From Giardia intestinalis (Eukaryota): DNA of 64,000 nt. The notes beneath the pieces were generated by a model. It was given only the letters and a program-made list of their open reading frames with translations. It ran no database searches and was not told where the DNA came from. The position numbers and the translations under genes are program-made. Location of the stretch: the NCBI GenBank assembly GCA_000002435.2, contig CM018789.1; one strand, given 5' to 3'. Below are positions 7,038 through 59,050 of this stretch, one piece after another (the stretch's first letter is position 1; every line of letters starts with the position of its first letter).

Positions 7038-7667
7038 GAATTAAGAATTTATTGGTCCTGTCAGCCTCCTGTCAGCCGTTGATCGCCCATTGTCTAATGT
7101 GGCTTGCTACTCGGTTCTACCACTGGCCCTGCACGTTGGCTACTGGGTGCCGTTGAGAGGATCACCAACCCAGCCACCCAATCGACGAAGGAAGTGGCGG
7201 TAGACGCTCATGATCGTCTGCATGTGTTCGTTGTTGACGAGCGCTTGTATGCACTGCAGACCGCTGAGAACGCTCAGCAAACGCCACAGTGACCTTAGTC
7301 ATAGATCGGGGTGATGTACTCATCTCGGAGGTCGACCACACCAGGAATGGGCCTCAGCGATTTGGCACACAGGCACTCTGGGTTGGCCGACTGTAGTGGA
7401 GGAGCATGATTCACAGATGTCCTTTGGCTCCCCTATGAAGACGCAAAGCCTGGCTGTTTGTCTTTAACACTGCGAGCAACAGATACTCATAAACACCAGT
7501 TTACACAAAATGTAACGTTCGTTTTTAGGCTTGAGAGTTGGATGCATGTGCATCTGGGCCTATAGTGGGATAGCTGGTAAGGTAGTGTTCAACAGAATGT
7601 TCGTAGAATGCACCTGTACGTAGATTCCACACTTAACTTTCTGGGACACACAAAAAATAGTATACGA

Positions 7668-9896
7668 ATGTTGTGTCTGCTAGCTTTGGAATTCGTAGTT
7701 AGCCTCGTTGTCGATGCTTATCAGAATGCTTTTGAAAAGGAGTGTACGACTGTGGCGCAAAAGGACACATGCGCGACCAAGAAGTGTATAACGGTCAGCG
7801 GCACCGAACTGTGCCGCGAGTGCGTTGGCGGAAAAGTCCCTATCGACGGGATTTGTAAGGACACTACTGATTCCAGTGTTAGTTTATATGGATGCGAGCA
7901 TTCTAGTGGCACTGGATTTTGCACCTCGTGCAAGGATACCGCCTTCCTCTTCTACGGCAGCTGTTACGCTATAGACAAGGTTCCGGGAAACCTTGTTTGT
8001 AGCAAAGCAGAGAGTGGCAAGTGTACGGAGTGCAGACAAGGATCAAAGTTTCTGTTTACAAACCCCGACGACAGTGCGGCGGAACGGTGCATATTGTGTT
8101 ACGACAACGTCGGCTTCGGCTCATATAAAGGCGTCGATGGCTGCAGGTACTGCCTGCCTCCGCTCACCGGAGAGACATCTGCAGAGTGCAACTGGTGCCA
8201 GAATGAGAAGTATGGCCCGATAGACGGAGTATGCAAAGATCCGGGCAGGCACTTGTGCGCCGACGGGGCCTGCTCAAACTGTTACATGACTCACATTCAG
8301 CACAACGGAGGGTGCTACACAAAGACAGAAACCGTTGCACAGAAGATATGCACCACCGAAAACCAGTTCCAAGTAATTAACATCACTGCCTGCAAGAAGT
8401 GCGCCATTAAAGGGGAGGTCCCAATGGACGGGCGGTGCATAAAGGGCTTGCTCGAGCCAAAGTGCAACCCGTATCCTAACACGGATGGCAGCTGTACCGA
8501 TTGTAAGAAGGGCGGAGTCAGCTACGACACGTTCCTGTTCAACGAGGGCTGCTACAACATGAGCGATTACATCGGGTCCCAGATCTGCAGCAAGGTTAAC
8601 GAAAACGCAGAATGTGAACTTTGGAATATCGGAAGTTATGCAGTTTTCCGGCCTCCAAACGACAAAACTGCCCATACGTGCAGCGATACTTCTGCCAGGG
8701 GCATCCCTGGATGCTCCCGCTGCAGCTACAATGTTGAGAAGAAAGGGCCTATTTGCTATAACTGTGAGTACAACACGTTGGCTTTTGATAGAATGTCATG
8801 TATCACTGAAACCAGCTGCACAGGGGATAATGTACAACGAAAGTGCCCTGGAAACTCCGAAAGAGGGTGCAGATGCGAGTGTGCAGAGAAATCCTATAAG
8901 AACGGAGATAAGTGCGTTGCGTGCGATTCATCATGTCTGAAATGCGCTGGACGAGAGAGTAGATCTTGCACACTGTGTCCTCCTGGCAAAGCTCTTAAAT
9001 ACATAGGAAGTTCTATGGTAGGAACGTGTGAAGAGGGCTGCAAACAGGATGATACATGCGAGACCTGTGGCCTAACGGTTAATCAAACAGCATATTGCTC
9101 TAAGTGCAAGGACCCCACTAAATATCCCCTAGATGGTGTGTGCACATCAGCAAGTGAAGCCAGGACATCCGCCTGTTTGCAGCAGTCCAATGGAGCGTGT
9201 CAGAAATGCTCATCTGACTATTTCTTAATGGGCGGTGGCTGCTACCAAATCAACAAATATCCCGGTCGATTTGTATGTGGATGGGCCGACGATGGGAAGT
9301 GTATAGAGACTATGAATGGATACAGCATTAACGACCAGGGCCAACTTGTAGATTGCGACTCTACCTGCATGACGTGCGTGGAAGGCAAGAAGGAGCAATG
9401 CTTGTCGTGTCACTCAAGCAAATACCTCAAGAAGGAAGGGACAACTTCTTACGGCACCTGCGTGAGCCGCAACGACTGCAAGGACGGATACTACGCCAAT
9501 CACGATACCATGGAGTGCCTCCCGTGCAACATCAACGACTGCGTCTCGTGCCATCTTATTGACAAGTCAATTTTGTGCAGTCGATGTCGTGGAGACAATC
9601 TTGTGGGCCTCGACAAACGCTCGTGCACGACGGTGATCCCCGAAAATGCCGTTGAGTCCTGGGGTGGTTATACATGCAACGATGACTCGGTTCTCTCGGG
9701 CAACGCATGTCTGAGAAAGAGCTCCCAGAAGAACAAAGGAAATGGGCTTTCTAACAACGTGATTATTGGAATTTGTGTTGGAGCTGTTTTGATTATGGGT
9801 GCGCTGATTGGTGTCCTGGCCTGGTGGGTGGTGTCCCGGAAGAAAAAGAGCGCCAGCTTTGAACGTAGTAGAAGCCTGGTTATATCTAAGTCCTAG
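7668..9896 (+). CDS. high-cysteine membrane protein (VSP-like, non-VSP tail)
   Basis: More than 20 CXXC motifs (CRECVGG, CTSCKD, CTECRQG, CNWCQN, CLKCAG, CMTCVEG and others) and GGCY-type motifs (GGCYTKTE, GGCYQINK, GSCYAIDK). There is a single C-terminal TM segment (VIIGICVGAVLIMGALIGVLAWWVV) followed by a 20-aa tail, SRKKKSASFERSRSLVISKS, instead of the VSP CRGKA ending. The signal-peptide-like start MLCLLALEFVVSLVV at ATG 7668 (aaaaaatagtatacgaATG) is preferred over the track start at 7608. Confidence 0.8.
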   Translation: MLCLLALEFVVSLVVDAYQNAFEKECTTVAQKDTCATKKCITVSGTELCRECVGGKVPIDGICKDTTDSSVSLYGCEHSSGTGFCTSCKDTAFLFYGSCYAIDKVPGNLVCSKAESGKCTECRQGSKFLFTNPDDSAAERCILCYDNVGFGSYKGVDGCRYCLPPLTGETSAECNWCQNEKYGPIDGVCKDPGRHLCADGACSNCYMTHIQHNGGCYTKTETVAQKICTTENQFQVINITACKKCAIKGEVPMDGRCIKGLLEPKCNPYPNTDGSCTDCKKGGVSYDTFLFNEGCYNMSDYIGSQICSKVNENAECELWNIGSYAVFRPPNDKTAHTCSDTSARGIPGCSRCSYNVEKKGPICYNCEYNTLAFDRMSCITETSCTGDNVQRKCPGNSERGCRCECAEKSYKNGDKCVACDSSCLKCAGRESRSCTLCPPGKALKYIGSSMVGTCEEGCKQDDTCETCGLTVNQTAYCSKCKDPTKYPLDGVCTSASEARTSACLQQSNGACQKCSSDYFLMGGGCYQINKYPGRFVCGWADDGKCIETMNGYSINDQGQLVDCDSTCMTCVEGKKEQCLSCHSSKYLKKEGTTSYGTCVSRNDCKDGYYANHDTMECLPCNINDCVSCHLIDKSILCSRCRGDNLVGLDKRSCTTVIPENAVESWGGYTCNDDSVLSGNACLRKSSQKNKGNGLSNNVIIGICVGAVLIMGALIGVLAWWVVSRKKKSASFERSRSLVISKS

Positions 9897-10832: not shown

Positions 10833-13320
10833 GCCGGTCCGAGCAATCCGTACCCCGTACAAGTCCTCCCCGCGGAAGGCGGACCCCGCCCGTTCGCCGC
10901 CCCAAGCCCAGAGTCCGGGGTTCGGGTCAGAACGTCGGTTGAGTCCGGGGGAGAAGAGCCCGACCGTGCACGCCAGCTCTGGCATCAACCGGAACGCCCT
11001 TCATACCTGCCGAGGAGCTAAGGCGCAATCCCTACCACCCAGTAGCACGACCGAGGCCACGGGGTTGAGCGGACGACAGCACCAGAGCGCCCGGCTGCTC
11101 GAGGCCCGGCGGACCAGAGGGCCTCCGTGAGGAAGACAGGGACCCGGCTCGTCCAGGGCACTGCGAAGCGCCGCCCCTCGCCGGGGATGCGCTCCGACGC
11201 CAGGAGAACGAGGGCCGCGGGCACACGTGGACGCCTGATAAGACGGCGGAAAAGCCGCGCCTCTCGTGCGAGCACGTGAAGCACTCATGAGCGCGCTTCC
11301 GGTGCTCCAGGTCCGGCCCGGGCCTCAGGAGCCCACTGAGACGGAGCATCCTACGCTGAGCGGCACCGGGTGAACGTTGAACTAGTAGGAGCGGAAGAGC
11401 ACGTGCCTGTCCTGAGCGAAGACCCTCCGCGGCGAGGCCGTCCAGACGCATGCAGCACAGACACCGGATGCAGGGCGCTGCTGAGTGGGGCAGCGGGGAT
11501 AGAGAAGGACATCCCCCTCAGCGCCCGTCGTGTGAACGTGCTCAGGGGAGGGTACCTAACACCCCGCAGAGCTCCAGTCGAGAGCCGAGGAGACGTGCCT
11601 CCCCACACAGCGGGGAAGCGGAGGAGCGGCATTCACCGGCCCGCTGCCCGGCTTGCAGCCTCTGCCTCGCCTCGAAGGGGAGCTGCCCCCTAACAGCGCC
11701 ACCGACGACCAGCACCTTGCTATCCAGAGGGCCGGGTCAGGACGGCCTGGACCTACGCTGGCGAGTCCATCCGGGTGCAGGCCTTCAGCGAGATCCTCGG
11801 CGCGATCCATAGGATGGGATGCGTGCTCTGTACGGTTCCGCCTGGCCCTTCCCCAAGAATGAGACAGGACAACCACGATCAGGGGACGATCATGATGCGC
11901 TCCACAAGGTAGTCCCGAGTCCCCTGGAGACCCAGACACTAGCCTTCCCGAGACAGAGCAGACTGCGTTCTACTGACTGCACATGGTGGCGTTCGCATGG
12001 CACAGGGAGACACAGGCTGATGGGCACGGCGACCTCGCTCGACATAACGAGCACCCCGACAGCAGACGGCCTCTGCCGGGCGAGTGTGCCCCGTCCCGAG
12101 GAGCTGCGTCGAGGCCTTCCTCCGGCTGTGACACGCCGCACCCCTGGGCTCGGTCCCTCGGGGCCCTACGCATGCTTCTGTGCTGCGCGGGACAGAACCT
12201 GCTCGCCAGGAGCTGAGGAGAGACCCCGCTCAGTGCCCATGCCGACGACACACTCATCTTCCATAGTAGCAACAATGACGTGGCGGGGGTAGTCACAGAG
12301 GCGGCAGGCCTGGTGAAGCAACATGGCTCGACGGTCAACACTGACAAGTATAGGAACACAGAGGGGCAGGAGGCCTCCTTCCTGGCCGGTCGAAGGAGCT
12401 CCCAGGGCAACGGAGGGCCGAAGCCAGTGATGGCACTAATCACTCGCCACGCTGGTCGAGATGGACCCGCACGTGGCCTATGTGAATCCCTCGGCAAGAG
12501 ATGGGAGCCTTGGGGTGCTTGGCTGGCAGAGGCGGACTGATCCTGCCCACACCGAAGAGTGGCGGCCTGGAACACCTGTCTGGCGTCTGCCGCAGCAGTT
12601 GGTAATCCCTTGACACCATCGAGTAGACGGGTGCCGGTTGTAGAGAGACGGCCTGACAGCGAACCGGTCCTGATCGCTCCTGGTGCCTCAGACGACGCCT
12701 CGACAGACCGAAGCATCACCCCAAGTGTGCTGTGCAGATGGACCAGCCCACAGGTCAGCTAAGCCAGACACGCTGCACAGGGTGAGCGTCGATGTGATCT
12801 CGTGCTGGGTGACGGACCAGCTGCAAGAGTGCACTGTGATTCATGAATAGGAGGGCAAACCAGAAGCCAGACCTCTCCTCCAACGCCAACGCATGGGAGT
12901 ACTCCGCCGGCATCCACGAACGCGTACTATGACTCCAAGACAGAGGCGCACGAGGAGCGCACCCTCCGGTCATACTCGGGACTGATGGTGCCCTCCACGA
13001 AGAGACGAAGAGGCACCCCGAGGAACGGGGTAGACACCCGGGGTCGTGGCGTGGGATCTTCGTCGTAGAGCATCAGCACCACGAAGCAATCCTGGAGTAC
13101 ATTGCCAGAGTCAATTGCTCTTGAGACTAGATCGCCGCGACTGACGCAAGGCCCTGAGATAGTAGGTGCCCACCAGTGCCAGACGGTAGTTGACCCCGAC
13201 GGGCCAGAGGAAGGAAAGTCCTAGGGGCACCGCGAGGAGCGGCAGCTTTTAGGAGAGCTGGGACATAGGGGTTCTTCCGCCGGGATCGAGGGCATCCGAC
13301 TCTCGGACTCTGGACTCTGC
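10833..13320 (+). mobile_element. non-LTR retrotransposon copy A, 5'-truncated and frameshifted (RT + CCHC/REL-endonuclease remnants; probably the Giardia GilD family)
   Basis: GC-rich block with no plus-strand ORF longer than 157 codons. RT motifs are recoverable across frames: GDDHDALHKVV (about 11,880), DTPHPWARSLGALRMLL (about 12,130), SAHADDTLIF (HADD at 12,238-12,249), then GLVKQHGSTVNTDKY...EASFLAG. Downstream are HHRVDGC and ERRPDSEPVLI (RPD at about 12,649-12,657). Positions 10,839-13,307 repeat almost exactly at 19,582-22,050. Confidence 0.75.
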
Positions 13321-13596
13321 CTGGAAGCGAAAGACCTGCCTTCACTTGCCTCAACTGCCATTAAACTCTGATCTTACCCAGTGTACCGAAGCAAAAATAA
13401 GACTGTTCGGGCTGCCCCCGCGTGCTAATAGATCCCATCAGAAGTAGACGAGTCGTGGAGATGGGCTCGTTCCACGTGCCTGCTCCTCTGAGGATGCGCT
13501 GCCCTTGCTCCCCACCGAGTCCCTGGTGCTCCTCTCCGTCTCTCTGTGATCAGTAACATGTGGCACTGGCGCTTCGCTCTACCGGCCTTAGAGCGT

Positions 13597-15654
13597 TTAC
13601 TCTGAGAGGAGGGCAATTATCTCATGGCGCCTCCATAGCTTGGCCATGTCAAGGGCAGTTTCGTCCATATTATCTCTAATATTCTTCTCCCTCACAAGGA
13701 GCCTCGCACACTCTACGTAGCCGCTCTGTGCAGCGACTGTGAGAGCGGGCCATCCATCGTTATTTTGCATACCGCCCTCTTTCTCCACAAGTAATCTGAC
13801 ACAGCTTGCGTGGCCATTCTGCGCAGCCCACATGAGGGCCGTCCATCCATCCCTCGATTGCGCACAACTCTCCTTTTCTACGAGTAGCTCAACACAGCCA
13901 GCTTCGCCACGTTCTGCAGCAATCATAAGGGCGGTCCATTTGCTGTTATCCTGTATACCGCCTTCCTGCCTCAGAAGCAATTCGACACAGCTTCTGTGGC
14001 CTTTCCCCGCTGCAGCCATAAGGGCGGTTTCCCCATCGTTATCTTGCATGCCAACCTCGTTTTTCAAGAGCAATTTGGCACACTCTGAATGGCCAGCACT
14101 TGCTGCAGCCATGAGGGCCGTCCACCCCTTATCGCTCTTCATGCCGCTTTCCTTCTCTAGCAGGAGCTTAAGACAGTCTGCGCGGCCAGTCCTTGCAGTA
14201 TACATGAGGGCGGTCCATCCGTTGCTATCTTTCAGTCCCTTCTCTTTCTCCGCGAGCAGCTCCACAATCTCTGTGTATCCATATACCGCCGCCCTTATCA
14301 GAGCAGTTCCCTCGTATATCTTCCAGTCACCTACAAGTGCGCATCCCTTCATCTTCATGCCCCCCTGGAGCGGTATGAGGGCCTTCACAGCCTCCACGTC
14401 GTTTCTATCGACTGCCTTCATGAGGTCGGTGGAGTCGTCCTCCTCTATTAGGTGCTTCTCTGGCTCTTCTGACTCGTCTGATTCGTCTGACTCCTCCATT
14501 TCGTCTGTCTCGTCTGTTTCGCCCATCTCTGTCTTAATCTCCTGTATTTCCCTGAATAGCTTGGCGGCAATAGCACACTGCTCCCTAATGATGTCCATTC
14601 TTGCAGCTCGATCAGGAGGGTCCTTCCTAAGAGCTACTGTTTCGTTGTTGGCTCTATTCAAGGCTTCTACAAAGGCTGCGCGCACCTCCTTTAACCTTGT
14701 ATCTTGGGCCTCTTGTTCATCAGCAGAGATGCCAAGCCTCCGAAGTAGACGGGCGAGCCTTCTGGCAGTCGGCCTCTCGGCGGGATCGAGGACGAGCATC
14801 CTCTCAAGGACGCTCCTTGCGAGGTCGTCTGCGACACCGCTCAGGTCCGGCCTCCATCCGTCGACGAAGACCTCTGCTGGCTCCCTGCCCCCCAAGAAAT
14901 CCGGCTTCCTCAGGGTGGCGAGCTCGTATGCGACGGCCCCGAGGCTCCAGACGTCGGATGCGGCGGTCGTGTCACCGCAGAGGAGTGTCTCGGGGGCCAT
15001 GTACGCGGGGTCGCCAGCCTTCGCAGCTCCGCTCGATATGCCCTCGCAGAACCCGAAGTCTGCAAGAACAACACGCCGCCCGTCCCCAGCGAACATGATG
15101 TTGTCGGGCTCGAGGACAACGCTAGAGGGCAGGCCGTTGTGGGCACCTCTGCTGAGCCCGTGGAGGTGGGCAAGGGCGCCAGCCAGCTGCCCCAGAAGGG
15201 AGAGCACCAGCTTGCTGGGAATAGGTTCGTGAATGTCCCTGTAGTCGGTGATGAACTGCCTCAGGTCCCCGCAGCAGCGGTCTGTGACAACAAGGATCGT
15301 ATTGTCATCCATAAGCACCTGGTGGTATTTGAGAACGTCTGGGTGAAGGGTGCCTAGAAGAACGGTCAGCCTACGCCGAATGGCATCTACGCTGTGTTGA
15401 TCCAGACCATCAAGCCGGATTTCTTTCACAGCAAGGTACGGGCATCCCCTGAGAGAGTAGACGGCACCGTGGGCATCCTTACTGAGCATGTTACCTAGGC
15501 GTCTATGCAACTTTTTGGGGCTGAACACGGGAACGCCACCAGCGCCCATCGGCCCTGAAAAGCCGCTAACTAAATTGTTACTGGCATCTCCTAGGGCGCC
15601 CTCTGCGGTGGCTAAGGCAGAGGGGTAAAGCCCGCAGTCAACAGCCATTGCCAC
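13597..15654 (-). CDS. NEK-family kinase domain fused to C-terminal ankyrin repeats (likely pseudokinase)
   Basis: The N-terminal kinase fold shows YLAVKEI, ADFGF, AYMAPETL and SDVWSLGAVAYEL, but the catalytic loop reads SVVLEPDN instead of HRDLKPxN. It is followed by a coiled/acidic linker (ETDETDEMEESDESDESEEPE) and about 9 ankyrin units (GWTALMxAAxxGHxxCVxLLxEKE). Confidence 0.85.
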   Translation of the reverse strand: MAMAVDCGLYPSALATAEGALGDASNNLVSGFSGPMGAGGVPVFSPKKLHRRLGNMLSKDAHGAVYSLRGCPYLAVKEIRLDGLDQHSVDAIRRRLTVLLGTLHPDVLKYHQVLMDDNTILVVTDRCCGDLRQFITDYRDIHEPIPSKLVLSLLGQLAGALAHLHGLSRGAHNGLPSSVVLEPDNIMFAGDGRRVVLADFGFCEGISSGAAKAGDPAYMAPETLLCGDTTAASDVWSLGAVAYELATLRKPDFLGGREPAEVFVDGWRPDLSGVADDLARSVLERMLVLDPAERPTARRLARLLRRLGISADEQEAQDTRLKEVRAAFVEALNRANNETVALRKDPPDRAARMDIIREQCAIAAKLFREIQEIKTEMGETDETDEMEESDESDESEEPEKHLIEEDDSTDLMKAVDRNDVEAVKALIPLQGGMKMKGCALVGDWKIYEGTALIRAAVYGYTEIVELLAEKEKGLKDSNGWTALMYTARTGRADCLKLLLEKESGMKSDKGWTALMAAASAGHSECAKLLLKNEVGMQDNDGETALMAAAGKGHRSCVELLLRQEGGIQDNSKWTALMIAAERGEAGCVELLVEKESCAQSRDGWTALMWAAQNGHASCVRLLVEKEGGMQNNDGWPALTVAAQSGYVECARLLVREKNIRDNMDETALDMAKLWRRHEIIALLSE
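13600..14440 (-). repeat. ankyrin-repeat coding array (about 9 units, 31-residue / 93-nt period) inside the NEK gene
   Basis: Units include GWTALMYTARTGRADCLKLLLEKESGMKSDK, GWTALMAAASAGHSECAKLLLKNEVGMQDND, GETALMAAAGKGHRSCVELLLRQEGGIQDNS, KWTALMIAAERGEAGCVELLVEKESCAQSRD and GWTALMWAAQNGHASCVRLLVEKEGGMQNND. Confidence 0.8.
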
Positions 15655-15840
15655 TTTTAAATCTCCATCTTAACTTGTTTTTTAAGAAGGTATTCAGTCC
15701 ATGTTTACAGAAGCCGGCCTTTTCTATACTATACAGTAGTCATCAATTAATGAACAGAATTATGTACTCATTTGGAGGTTTCCTCCTCTAGTGTGCTTAG
15801 ATACAACAAAGATGATTCATTTCACCAACCGGTTACTTCC

Positions 15841-15940
15841 AATACTGTGTTGTTGGGACCTCCGCCTGTGGACATGGCCCAAAGGTTCCACGAATAAGCC
15901 CTCGCTCAATTCCTGGCCATATCTAGAGAAAAAGGCTACT
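15841..15940. repeat. left arm of a long inverted repeat
   Basis: I reverse-complemented 16,861-16,960 in 10-nt blocks. Positions 15,845-15,940 match perfectly (96/96) and 15,841-15,940 match 98/100. Confidence 0.95.
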
Positions 15941-16860
15941 CGATGAGCACAAGGGCCCCCTCTAGTTACACAGAGGGACGACTAGAGACTCAACACAATT
16001 GTCACATACCACCTTCAGCTGTTAAGGGAATCAACACAGAACCGGGAACCAGATATTTGACTTATAGGCACGTATAAAATGATAGCTGGACCCATCTAGT
16101 CATCAGACGAACCAGTTACGGCGAAATATTCGGAAATACAGAGATAGAACATTCGTAATTATTTATGGAGCGAGCGATTTCTTCATCCTATATCCAGAGG
16201 CACCTTGAGAAACTCCGCGTGGTAACCAAACGAACACCTAACGAGATTAATCATAGGCTTTGAGAGCTAGCCTTCAGGGTGACTGAAGGAGGGAGAACCA
16301 CTGGCTACCCGAAGTTCTGAGGTATCCCCAAGCTCATAGCTTAGACAGACGACCATGGGACAAGAGAAACAACCACATTTTCACCAACCACTGTCACCCC
16401 CAATCCAAAGAGCCACAGCGATAGAAACCAACTAGACCCTAGAGGAAGGAACAACTATCGATAGGTAACGAGGTTCTGCATAGCGAACTACGGGCCCGCA
16501 GCATCCATCTGTTTTCACGGCGTTAGGATGGACTTTCGTAGGATTAGGGATGCCTTATGGGGTAAGAGACTATCGGTGGAATCGAAGTAGCAACGACGGC
16601 TACAGACAGAGGGGATAAAACGCTGTAAAAGAGGACATTGATGACCCGAATTCTCATCCATCATAGATAACAGACCAAGGAAGGAGGTGGAATTTATTAG
16701 TTACACGTGTTTGCAGAAAATTGGGGTCCCGGGCGAATCAGGCGTGCGAGCATCACCAGACGTGCATACCTGAGCCGAATGCACACACTACATAAGATCA
16801 CCAAAAAGAGTTGTATCCAGACGTACTAGTGAGAAGGAATCTCTTGTTACATTATTTACT

Positions 16861-16960
16861 AGTAGCCTTTTTCTCTAGATATGGCCAGGAATTGAGCGAG
16901 GGCTTATTCGTGGAACCTTTGGGCCATGTCCACAGGCGGAGGTCCCAACAACACAGCACT
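16861..16960. repeat. right arm of the inverted repeat (reverse complement of 15,841-15,940)
   Basis: Same comparison as the left arm. The arms are separated by a 920-bp spacer (15,941-16,860) with no ORF of 60 aa or more in any frame. Confidence 0.95.
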
Positions 16961-18292
16961 TAGATATAATCATAGCGTTAATACCCTCTCATGATTTCCA
17001 ACCCGTTTATGCCACAAAAGGAGAGATAATTATTTTCATGTTATATATAGACTGACGATACTTTTATTATGCTTGGTCTTCATAAGCAGCCAGTGACTTT
17101 TAATAGATATTTGGTTGTGTGGCATAAAACAACATGAGAAATACTAGCTCCGTTTCCTGCTTACAGTCGTTCGATCAGTTATAGCCTCGTGAGCATTAGG
17201 ACTCTGATGACATATCTTGTAAATGTTAGCCTCGAAATATCTGTTGATTTAGAAGACGAGAGACAACCCTATGTGTACCATCTTCTTGACTCCATGGGGT
17301 ATCCTTGTATACTAATCCATATATAAACCTGCCAGATAGATGGTAGAGCAGCTATTGTGGAGAGCTTACATAGGATCCTGTCTGCAGGCATAGTTCTGGG
17401 ATTTCACGAGTGAATTCCTTCATTTTTTGCTATCTCTAGAAACAATTAAGAGCTTCCCCCGCGACCTTGTACACCAAATCCGGTGCATCTTTAAATTCTT
17501 CAGATGGCACTCGTGTCTAACCTGAGTGAGTATGCTCTAATGGCACATATAGTTTTACTCCTTGTATGAGTCTGGCCCTTTCAAGAGCGTTAGCAGGCTG
17601 CGAGCACACATCTTTCTCAGACTCGGTAGTCTAGCTTTGGTCCCCCATCGTCCTCCTTATCTTCGGAGCATTCCCTGTCCTGTAAAACTGCACTCTATCA
17701 TCAGGGAGGCAAGGAGAGACTCAGAATTTATGAGTCGCTCTGTGGCGTTTATCCATCTGTGTTACTGGATTCTGGGCCCCCAACTTGCATTAGTAGCTCA
17801 GGAGTCGCATAAGCGTACCCACTTCCTTTGTAGCTTTATGTGGAGATGAAGCTAAATGGCTGCTAACAGGTCTGTGGATTCTTTTGGCAAGTTTGCATGT
17901 CGAATCAGTATGTTGTTAGGGATTTCGACTCCATATTCCTGTCTGGCCCGAATGCATGCGATGGCCGTTTTTGCCTTTTCACCGCTTCTACCTTGCTATG
18001 GGTTCTTAGCAGTCGATGTTTCTTCTTTTTCTCAATCGTTCTGATCACCCATGCAAGGAGCCCTGCTAACAGTTAGACGTACGTTGACAGTAGGCAATCA
18101 CTGGGTGGCCAGACTTTCAGCTCAGTCACTTCTGATCGGCTTCGTCGGATGCTCAGTTCGTGATCATCATAAGGCTCGAAGTGAAAAGCTTCACATTGTG
18201 TCGTTTATAATCCTCGTCTTCAACATAACTAATATAAATGGAAGTTTGCTCATGTATTTCTGCATCTACTCGCAGGTAAAGAGTCCAAGACT

Positions 18293-57581: not shown

Positions 57582-59050
57582 TCCAGAGTCCGAAGCTCGG
57601 ATGCCCTCGATCCCGGCGGAAGAACATCTATGCCTCGTCTCTCCTAGAAGCTGCCGCTCCTCGCGGTGCCCCCTAGGACTTTCCTTCCTCTGGCCCGTCG
57701 GGGTCAACTACCGTCTGGCACTGGTGGGCACCTACTATCTCAGGGCCTTGCGTCAGTCGCGGCGATCTAGTCTCAAGAGCAATTGACTCTGGCAATGTAC
57801 TCCAGGATTGCTTCGTGGTGCTGATGCTCTACGACGAAGATCCCACGCCACGACCCCGGGTGTCTACCCCGTTCCTCGGGGTGCTTCTTCGTCTCCTCAT
57901 GGATTGCACCATCAGTCCCGAGTATGACCGGAGGGTGCGCTCCTCGTGCGCCTCTGTCTTGGAGTCATAGTACGCGTTCGTGGATGCCGGCGGAGTACTC
58001 CCATGCGTTGGCGTTGGAGGAGAGGTCTGGCTTCTGGTTTGCCCTCCTATTCATGAATCACAGTGCACTCTTGCAGCTGGTCCGTCACCCAGCACGAGAT
58101 CACATCGACGCTCACCCTGTGCAGCGTGTCTGGCTTAGCTGACCTGTGGGCTGGTCCATCTGCACAGCACACTTGGGGTGATGCTTCGGTCTGTCGAGGC
58201 GTCGTCCAAAGCACCAGGAGCGATCAGGACCGGTTCACCGTCAGGCCGTCTCTCTCTACAACCGGCACCCGTCTACTCGATGGTGTCAAGGGATTACCAA
58301 CTGCTGCGGCAGACGCCAGACAGGTGTTCCAGGCCGCCACTCTTCGGTGCAGGCAGGATCAGTCCGCCTCCGTCAGCCAAGCACCCCAGGGGCTCCATCT
58401 CTTGCCGAGGGATTCACATAGGCCACGTGCGGGTCCATCTCGACCAGCGTGGCGAGTGATTAGTGCCATCACTGGCTTCGGCCCTCCGTTGCCCTGGGAG
58501 CTCCTTCGACCGGCCAGGAAGGAGGCCTCCTGCCCCTCTGTGTTCCTATACTTGTCAGTGTTGACCGTCGAGCCATGTTGCTTCACCAGGCCTGCCGCCT
58601 CTGTGACTACCCCCGCCACGTCATTGTTGCTACTATGGAAGATGAGTGTGTCGTCGGCATGGGCACTGAGCGGGGTCTCTCCTCAGCTCCTGGCGAGCAG
58701 GTTCTGTCCCGCGCAGCACAGAAGCATGCGCAGGGCCCCGAGGGACCGAGTCCAGGGGTGCAGCGTGGCGCAATTGGAGGAAGGCCTCGACGCAGCTCCT
58801 CAGGACGGGAGCACACTCGCCCGGCAGAGGCCGTCTGCTGTTGGGGTTCGTTATGTCGAGCAAGACCGCTGTGCCCATCAGCCTGTGTCTCCCTGTGCCA
58901 TGCGAACGCCACCATGTGCAGTCGGTGGAACGCAGTCTGCTCGGTCTCGAGGAAGACCAATGTCTGGGTCTCCAGGAGGCTCGGGACTGCCTTGTGGAGC
59001 GCATCATGATCGTCCACCGATTGCACTTGCCCTGTCTCGTCCTTGGGAAG
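57582..59050 (-). mobile_element. non-LTR retrotransposon copy C, inverted and 5'-truncated (about 1.47 kb, corresponds to copy A 11,850-13,314)
   Basis: It is the reverse complement of the 3' portion of copies A and B. It contains stretches of more than 200 bp identical to copy A (for example 57,924-58,142 equals the reverse complement of 12,755-12,973) interspersed with clustered mismatches and small indels. It shares the same 3' terminus (tccagagtccg) as the other copies. Homology fades at about 59,050. Confidence 0.7.

Follow-up and report, generated by a model that had tools for sequence, protein, structure and literature searches.

The 64,000-nucleotide stretch of Giardia intestinalis WB DNA analysed here (the window; GenBank assembly GCA_000002435.2, contig CM018789.1) carries, between a gene for a NEK kinase and a gene with an AlbA_2 domain, a module of two inverted arms that enclose a non-coding spacer. 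The module and its surroundings comprise the following features, with positions given along the window:

10833-13315, plus strand: repeat R, copy 1, with a GC content of about 66%; the left bracket of the segment and probably the remnant of a dead retroelement
13597-15648, minus strand: gene for a NEK kinase with ankyrin repeats (XP_037901562.1; Pfam Pkinase and Ank)
15649-15708, minus strand: core upstream block of the NEK gene, about 60 bp, conserved with isolate P15, with lineage-specific DNA directly beyond it
15709-19547: stretch of 3,839 bp absent from the P15 junction, in which lie the module, ORF-free DNA (1.3 kb), the AlbA_2 gene and a tail rich in GC
15845-15940: left arm of the module, 96 nt, fully complementary to 16861-16956
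15941-16860: spacer, 920 bp, non-coding, with no homologue found and no excess RNA structure
16854-16860, minus strand: AGTAAAT, a match (as a motif only) to the Giardia poly(A) consensus AGTRAAY, directly after the right arm
16861-16956: right arm of the module, 96 nt, fully complementary to the left arm
18293-18889, minus strand: AlbA_2 or 'AAA-4 domain' gene, 198 aa (XP_037901563.1; Pfam PF04326)
19577-22058, plus strand: second copy of repeat R and right-hand bracket of the segment, 99.76% identical to copy 1 by self-BLAST

The NEK gene lies downstream of the module, whose left arm begins 197 bp before the NEK start codon, in agreement with the placement upstream of NEK proposed in an earlier sequence-only reading of this DNA. 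At 2,638 bp, the stretch between the NEK and AlbA_2 genes is very long given the compactness of the genome, and the 1.3 kb of it that separates the module from the AlbA_2 gene is free of ORFs. The AlbA_2 gene belongs to a gene family of metamonads in which it is short, most members reaching 350-850 aa or more, and homologues were found in Giardia P15, Hexamita, Spironucleus, Monocercomonoides and Paratrimastix. A bacterial transfer of the AlbA_2 gene together with the module is not supported, as the closest relatives of the gene product are metamonad proteins. The ORF-free DNA was also considered as the lost 3' half of a longer AAA-4/AlbA_2 gene and rejected as such: 24 homologues aligned by tblastn to the existing ORF alone, so this DNA is not a detectable decayed 3' half.

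Two R repeats, 2.48 kb long and in direct orientation, surround the NEK-module-AlbA_2 segment, and self-BLAST of the window located a third, inverted copy at 57582-59047. The sole protein signal within R was a weak, sub-threshold RVT_1 match (E = 0.008) over an 'ADD' motif, in keeping with the pseudo-RT remnants known from WB (PMC7000408), and R is probably a dead retroelement. The same window encodes a protein with a VSP Pfam domain at 7608-9896. In one gut-metagenome contig (L007), a further NEK 3' end comes after the R repeat, an indication that an 8.7-kb unit is arranged in tandem there. With its nearest NEK paralogue (locus L012) the gene has the coding sequence alone in common, and no copy of the module was found upstream of that paralogue.

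Structure and sequence content of the module

A repeat search across the 64-kb window recovered the arms at 15845-15940 and 16861-16956 as 96-nt sequences with 100% complementarity, lying 920 nt apart and giving a module of 1,112 bp in total, which bears out the 96/96 match and the spacer length noted earlier. Identity between the arms drops to the random level on the outer and inner sides of the 96 nt alike. The previously described extension to 98 of 100 positions is correct as a count, yet it reflects chance matches at two of the four flanking bases rather than longer arms. No direct repeat of 2-10 bp was present at the arm junctions, where the flanks read ...CCAATA and CACTTAG..., and the reported lack of a target-site duplication thus stands. 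Tandem Repeats Finder (15600-17200, minimum score 30) detected no tandem subrepeats within the arms or next to them. Also as described before, the module contains no ORF of 60 aa or more, the longest ORFs that overlap it being 51, 50 and 49 aa.

Further copies were sought at several levels. A 41-nt arm probe allowing up to 3 mismatches matched the two arm sites only in the 64-kb window (0 matches expected in shuffled sequence), and neither self-BLAST nor tblastx revealed another copy of the module there, so that the earlier statement that the window holds no additional arm could be upheld. Exact scanning with the outermost 30 nt of the arm gave 0 matches in the JGI metagenome, IMG/VR and GTDB collections, which contain little or no Giardia DNA. 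Our description of the module as single copy accordingly applies to the 64-kb window, the compared loci and these three public DNA collections, all poor in Giardia DNA.

The search for a coding or RNA identity was negative throughout. Stop-masked translations in six frames, made for 15655-16960 and for 16957-18292, gave nothing against Pfam at E ≤ 1, and a concatenated six-frame query had no match among 5.8 billion protein clusters, a result that counts as weak evidence against further copies since small ORFs are seldom called as genes. No Rfam family was detected at the gathering threshold or at E ≤ 1, and folding of the spacer yielded z-scores of +1.1 and +1.4 on the two strands relative to shuffled sequence, indicating no excess of structure. 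The Rfam result, in combination with spacer folding that was no better than in shuffles, led us to reject a non-coding RNA identity.

Occurrence of the module within and beyond assemblage A

The module was present in six independent assemblies, namely the WB window, an NCBI draft contig from another assemblage A isolate (L006; AHGT01000140.1, GCA_000498715.1) and contigs from four ENA gut-metagenome samples (L007-L010), one of which had been assembled at k = 141 and hence with a k-mer exceeding the arm length. The NCBI draft probably represents isolate DH of sub-assemblage AII. Site, orientation, the spacer length of 920 bp and the junction sequences were identical across all six, and no polymorphism in presence, absence or orientation was observed among these assemblage A assemblies. 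Searching other isolates, as had been proposed, therefore placed the module at the same site in five assemblies beyond WB. On this sequence evidence, the module is older than the split of the sampled assemblage A lineages.

Short-read data point in the same direction. Logan contigs, which derive from separate sequencing runs and carry the AlbA_2 gene, end at the right arm: two of them (L001 and L002) stop 29-30 nt into it (16927 and 16928), and a third (L003) stops at its inner edge (16861). Such breaks are expected where the arm is a true repeat in the isolates concerned. The sequence-only reading had cautioned that palindromes can be assembly or cloning artefacts, and this general caution is all that speaks for regarding the module as an artefact of the long-read reference. 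Independent recovery in an older NCBI draft and in four metagenome assemblies, together with the short-read contig ends from several runs, counters that concern; the five further assemblies show that the module is not an assembly artefact, and we consider the chance that it is one to be negligible.

Outside assemblage A, the closest NEK gene, with 82% identity at the nucleotide level, was that of P15 (contig ACVC01000186.1), which belongs to assemblage E. The P15 alignment covers window positions 15594-15708, running through the start codon, and after 2 bp resumes at 19548-19720, leaving the 3,839 bp of 15709-19547 without a counterpart at the P15 junction; these boundaries are approximate, the right-hand alignment being only about 73% identical. 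No target-site duplication, terminal inverted repeat or other inverted repeat was found at the ends of this stretch. Synteny with P15 stops beyond NEK and about 250 bp of upstream sequence, and none of the remaining P15 neighbours occurs in the window. Because the P15 locus is not fully syntenic, the 3,839-bp difference may represent either an insertion in assemblage A or a deletion in assemblage E. Window positions 19387-19441 also match, in inverted orientation, a 57-bp piece that in P15 lies downstream of the NEK gene.

Duplicated sequence makes up 6.9% of the WB genome, which contains many inverted gene pairs, including 19 inverted VSP pairs, and breaks in synteny fall at VSP, NEK and ARP clusters (PMC7000408). 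Identical inverted VSP pairs have likewise been described in G. muris, where duplications are bounded by NEK and ARP genes (PMC7641422). Consistent with both studies, the neighbourhood of the module appears to be prone to rearrangement.

Divergence of the arms and their perfect identity in WB

The six assemblies resolve into three haplotypes (WB, L007-L010 and L006), which differ in how well their two arms still match. Arm-to-arm differences number 0 in WB, 2 in L007-L010 (16883 and 16888) and 5 in L006 (15903, 16875, 16883, 16888 and 16901). The left arm of L007-L010 is identical to that of WB and the left arm of L006 is one transition away, while the right arm has accumulated two transitions relative to WB in L007-L010 (16883, 16888) and four in L006 (16875, 16883, 16888, 16901). 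Every arm change in the other isolates is thus a transition, and none of the five is compensated on the opposite arm. In plus-strand RNA two of the five changes would produce a G-U wobble, and in minus-strand RNA three of the five; a total of five changes is small enough to be compatible with weak constraint.

The wider intergenic region provides the background for these changes. Across its 2,638 bp, 29 sites vary, 27 of them by transition; the all-transition pattern of the arms is therefore unremarkable, and deamination or editing as its cause was rejected on the same count. Five of the 29 variable sites fall within the 192 bp of the arms against 2.1 expected (P = 0.056), so the arms show no greater conservation than the DNA around them. 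They may even change slightly faster, and for this slight enrichment we have no explanation. Haplotype pairs differ at 7-8 positions per 920 bp of spacer, and pairwise divergence outside the arms is 0.57-0.78%. By these measures, the module is not visibly protected.

The perfect match of the WB arms had been taken to mean that the module is recent or homogenised. The identity itself is confirmed, but the conclusion drawn from it calls for qualification, as the module predates the separation of WB from the remaining assemblage A lineages and chance retention suffices. At an arm-to-arm divergence of up to 1%, the probability of zero differences in WB is about 0.4-0.8, so that neither recency nor homogenization is required, and zero differences become unlikely only above roughly 3% divergence.

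Origin and possible activity of the module

We favour, with moderate confidence, the explanation that the module is a single, fixed and non-coding local inverted duplication which is older than the split of the sampled assemblage A lineages and has been drifting since. Of the three readings put forward from the sequence, inversion-duplication is the one best matched by a single fixed site, the lack of a target-site duplication, the lack of any coding remnant and a duplication-rich area of NEK, VSP and retroelement sequence. The module would have arisen from one copying event that placed a second, reversed version of a 96-bp segment about 0.9 kb from the first, likely through template switching during replication or through break repair; no microhomology or other junction signature diagnostic of template switching was found. 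The event would have taken place in lineage-specific, gene-poor DNA near the NEK promoter, within a duplication-prone area of NEK, VSP and dead-retroelement sequence. The duplication would predate the split of the sampled assemblage A lineages and most likely postdates the split from assemblage E, a polarity that the comparison with P15 does not prove. From then on the module would have been inherited vertically, neither moving nor flipping, its arms drifting like the surrounding DNA, with WB retaining a perfect pair by chance and the other isolates acquiring 2 and 5 uncompensated transitions. A long spacer makes a cruciform or hairpin unlikely to form in DNA, and stable inheritance fits this expectation. 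No selected function need be invoked, and any hairpin RNA would be a by-product of pervasive bidirectional transcription in Giardia.

The closest parallels are the inverted VSP gene pairs of Giardia, which likewise consist of inverted copies that are nearly or fully identical, are separated by unique spacers on the kilobase scale and occupy gene-poor areas of VSP, NEK, ARP and pseudo-RT sequence where synteny between assemblages breaks (PMC7000408, PMC7641422). They differ in scale and content: the arms of those pairs are whole genes of about 0.6-2.2 kb with spacers mostly of 2.5-3.3 kb (PMC7000408, Table 2), whereas the arms described here are non-coding, 96 bp long and 920 bp apart. The module is a new instance of a structure type already known in Giardia, not a new kind of element.

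Two readings that would assign the module to a mobile or a recombining element were weighed against local duplication. It could descend from a non-autonomous DNA transposon, of TIR or foldback type, that entered this site a single time in the ancestor of assemblage A and never moved again. With MITEs and foldback elements it shares terminal inverted repeats, a short non-coding core and sharp outer boundaries, and its termini (5'-CTGTG...CACAG-3') contain TG...CA, dinucleotides that are common at the ends of DDE elements. Its inner edges are, however, as sharp as its outer ones, and no target-site duplication of 2-10 bp is present even though the arms are still perfect. MITEs and foldbacks are further marked by multiple copies, insertion polymorphism and a related transposase. 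For the module, neither the window nor the paralogous NEK locus held a second copy, scans of the Giardia-poor JGI metagenome, IMG/VR and GTDB collections returned none, the six assemblies showed no presence/absence polymorphism, and a transposase trace was absent from every frame in the Pfam and protein-cluster searches. At 1,112 bp the module also exceeds typical MITE size, its arms lack the tandem subrepeats of which FB-type foldback arms are built, and our literature searches found no DNA transposon in Giardia. The foldback or MITE reading is disfavoured on these grounds, and we hold a transposon relic to be improbable. A separate proposal is that the arms recombine with each other, so that gene conversion, in which the left arm would act as donor, maintains their identity in WB, and that this recombination may also flip the spacer. 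At 16883 and 16888, WB differs from both other haplotypes and matches its own left arm, as a short conversion tract would, and gene conversion is documented for Giardia VSP families, in which identical inverted pairs exist (PMC7000408, PMC7641422). The same pattern results, at least as parsimoniously, from a root placed between WB (AI) and the other isolates with two mutations on their shared stem, which need no extra process, unlike a conversion tract in WB. Homogenization is moreover absent from the other lineages. Site-specific invertible DNA switches occur in both orientations and have a recombinase nearby; here the spacer orientation was constant in the six assemblies, and no recombinase gene was recognized among the neighbouring ORFs or in any frame by Pfam. 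Homogenization or inversion by arm recombination is accordingly highly doubtful.

The remaining question is one of activity rather than origin, and hairpin activity would be compatible with an origin by local duplication. A plus-strand transcript through both arms would fold into a 96-bp stem with a 920-nt loop, which the Giardia Dicer could cut into endo-siRNAs; we regard this as an unlikely, minority possibility. Each of the three haplotypes is predicted to form a highly stable stem, at -204, -191 to -199 and -180 to -184 kcal/mol, and the longest perfect runs measure 96, 68 and 55 bp. Giardia polyadenylation follows the consensus AGTRAAY, and the plus strand is free of this motif from 15600 to 17409, so a transcript could cover both arms. 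Giardia promoters are reported to be inherently bidirectional, with plentiful sterile transcripts (PMC1885649), and given this property and the motif gap, plus-strand transcription diverging from the NEK promoter could extend across both arms. Regions generating endo-siRNAs have been reported in WB (Liao et al. 2014, in the account given by PMC11080815). With those regions and with the hpRNA loci of animals and plants the module has in common a long perfect inverted repeat that would form a duplex of Dicer length if transcribed, and Giardia possesses Dicer and Argonaute. On the minus strand, conversely, a poly(A)-type motif stands right after the first arm to be met; the only other minus-strand AGTRAAY in 13400-19000 overlaps the NEK stop codon, and the motif occurs at background frequency, with 13-16 copies per strand in 64 kb against 15.6 expected. 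All five arm substitutions are uncompensated, the arms are no more conserved than their flanks, and the spacer shows no excess structure. The arms of known hpRNAs usually derive from, and so are homologous to, their targets, whereas the arm and spacer frames of the module match no predicted protein among the 5.8 billion clusters and the arms have no detectable homology to a coding target. Together, the uncompensated changes and the missing target homology count mildly against a selected hairpin function. The more specific proposal, that the module is a hairpin-RNA gene particular to assemblage A whose plus-strand transcript arises divergently from the NEK promoter and is processed by Dicer into endo-siRNAs, we judge to be improbable.

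What the module would mean for Giardia depends on which of these explanations applies. Arms that fed the Dicer/Argonaute pathway would raise its importance: the locus would be the first hpRNA-type source of small RNA to be defined in a diplomonad, and it might match or add to the endo-siRNA-generating regions of WB. Further copies, should any be found, would give the first indication that Giardia harbours a DNA transposon. As a local inverted duplication, the explanation we favour, the module is a small structural curiosity and a short, non-coding addition to the inverted duplications of Giardia variable-gene regions. It marks a lineage-specific stretch of 3.8 kb beside the NEK promoter and accounts for the breaks that short-read assemblies show here. 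It also offers a dated natural experiment on the rate at which a perfect palindrome with a spacer decays in a tetraploid and largely asexual protist.

Repeat R and the segment it encloses

Self-comparison of the window placed copies of R, a GC-rich repeat (2.48 kb, GC ~66%), at the following positions:

10833-13315, direct, R copy 1
19577-22058, direct, R copy 2
57582-59047, inverted, R copy 3, partial (~1.47 kb aligned, ~95% identity)

The two direct copies are 99.76% identical and enclose the segment formed by the NEK kinase gene, the inverted-repeat module and the AlbA_2 gene. The sole protein signal of R was a weak, sub-threshold RVT_1 match (E = 0.008) over an 'ADD' motif, on which basis R is probably a dead retroelement remnant.

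In assemblage E (isolate P15, NEK locus L013), the NEK promoter block is joined directly to the start of R-like sequence (the junction region being L013 9771-10001), with the same two blocks lying 3.84 kb apart in the window (15709-19547). Apart from this junction the window and P15 loci are non-syntenic, so the 3.84-kb difference can be read either as an insertion or as a deletion; neither a target-site duplication nor terminal inverted repeats were found at the ends of the 15709-19547 stretch. A 57-bp piece situated 3' of NEK in P15 (L013 12294-12350) recurs in inverted orientation on the 5' side of AlbA_2 in the window (19387-19441, 81% identity) and, judged from this alignment, is one more sign of local inversion.

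The AlbA_2 gene and minus-strand motifs

Two overlapping reading frames lie between the module and the second direct copy of R:

18293-18889, minus strand, AlbA_2/'AAA-4 domain' gene, 198 aa
18886-19341, minus strand, GC-rich ORF, 151 aa

At 198 aa, the AlbA_2 gene is short for the metamonad family to which it belongs, most of its relatives having 350-850 aa or more. An 857-aa protein from read-set assemblies matched it best (45% identity), and in a word-indexed search its near-identical matches were confined to assemblage A sequences. The 151-aa ORF shares 4 nt with the AlbA_2 start (an ATGA-type overlap), differs greatly from that gene in composition (GC ~62% versus 40%), had no Pfam match and may be spurious.

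Matches to AGTRAAY, the Giardia polyadenylation consensus, numbered only two on the minus strand of 13400-19000:

13595-13601, minus strand, AGTRAAY match overlapping the NEK stop codon
16854-16860, minus strand, AGTRAAY match directly after the right arm of the module

The distance from the AlbA_2 stop downstream to the latter match is 1.4 kb; no minus-strand match was found near that stop.

Variation among assemblage A isolates

In one metagenome-derived isolate (contig L007), a second NEK 3' end follows the AlbA_2 gene and R (L007 5316-7371 against window 12093-14153, 94% identity). This arrangement suggests either that the 8.7-kb R-NEK-module-AlbA_2 unit occurs there in tandem or that the assembler wrapped around a repeat. 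Within the NEK gene of the window, a direct repeat of ~200 bp (13754-13950 against 14033-14229, ~69% identity) corresponds to ankyrin repeat units.

Compared with three assemblage A contigs (L006, L007 and L008), divergence was several-fold greater in R and in the part of NEK encoding the kinase domain (window 12750-13500 and 14750-15500; 11-54 differences per 250 bp) than in ORF-free intergenic DNA and AlbA_2 (0-5 per 250 bp). Paralogues could have supplied this high divergence through gene conversion, or NEK may be under diversifying selection.
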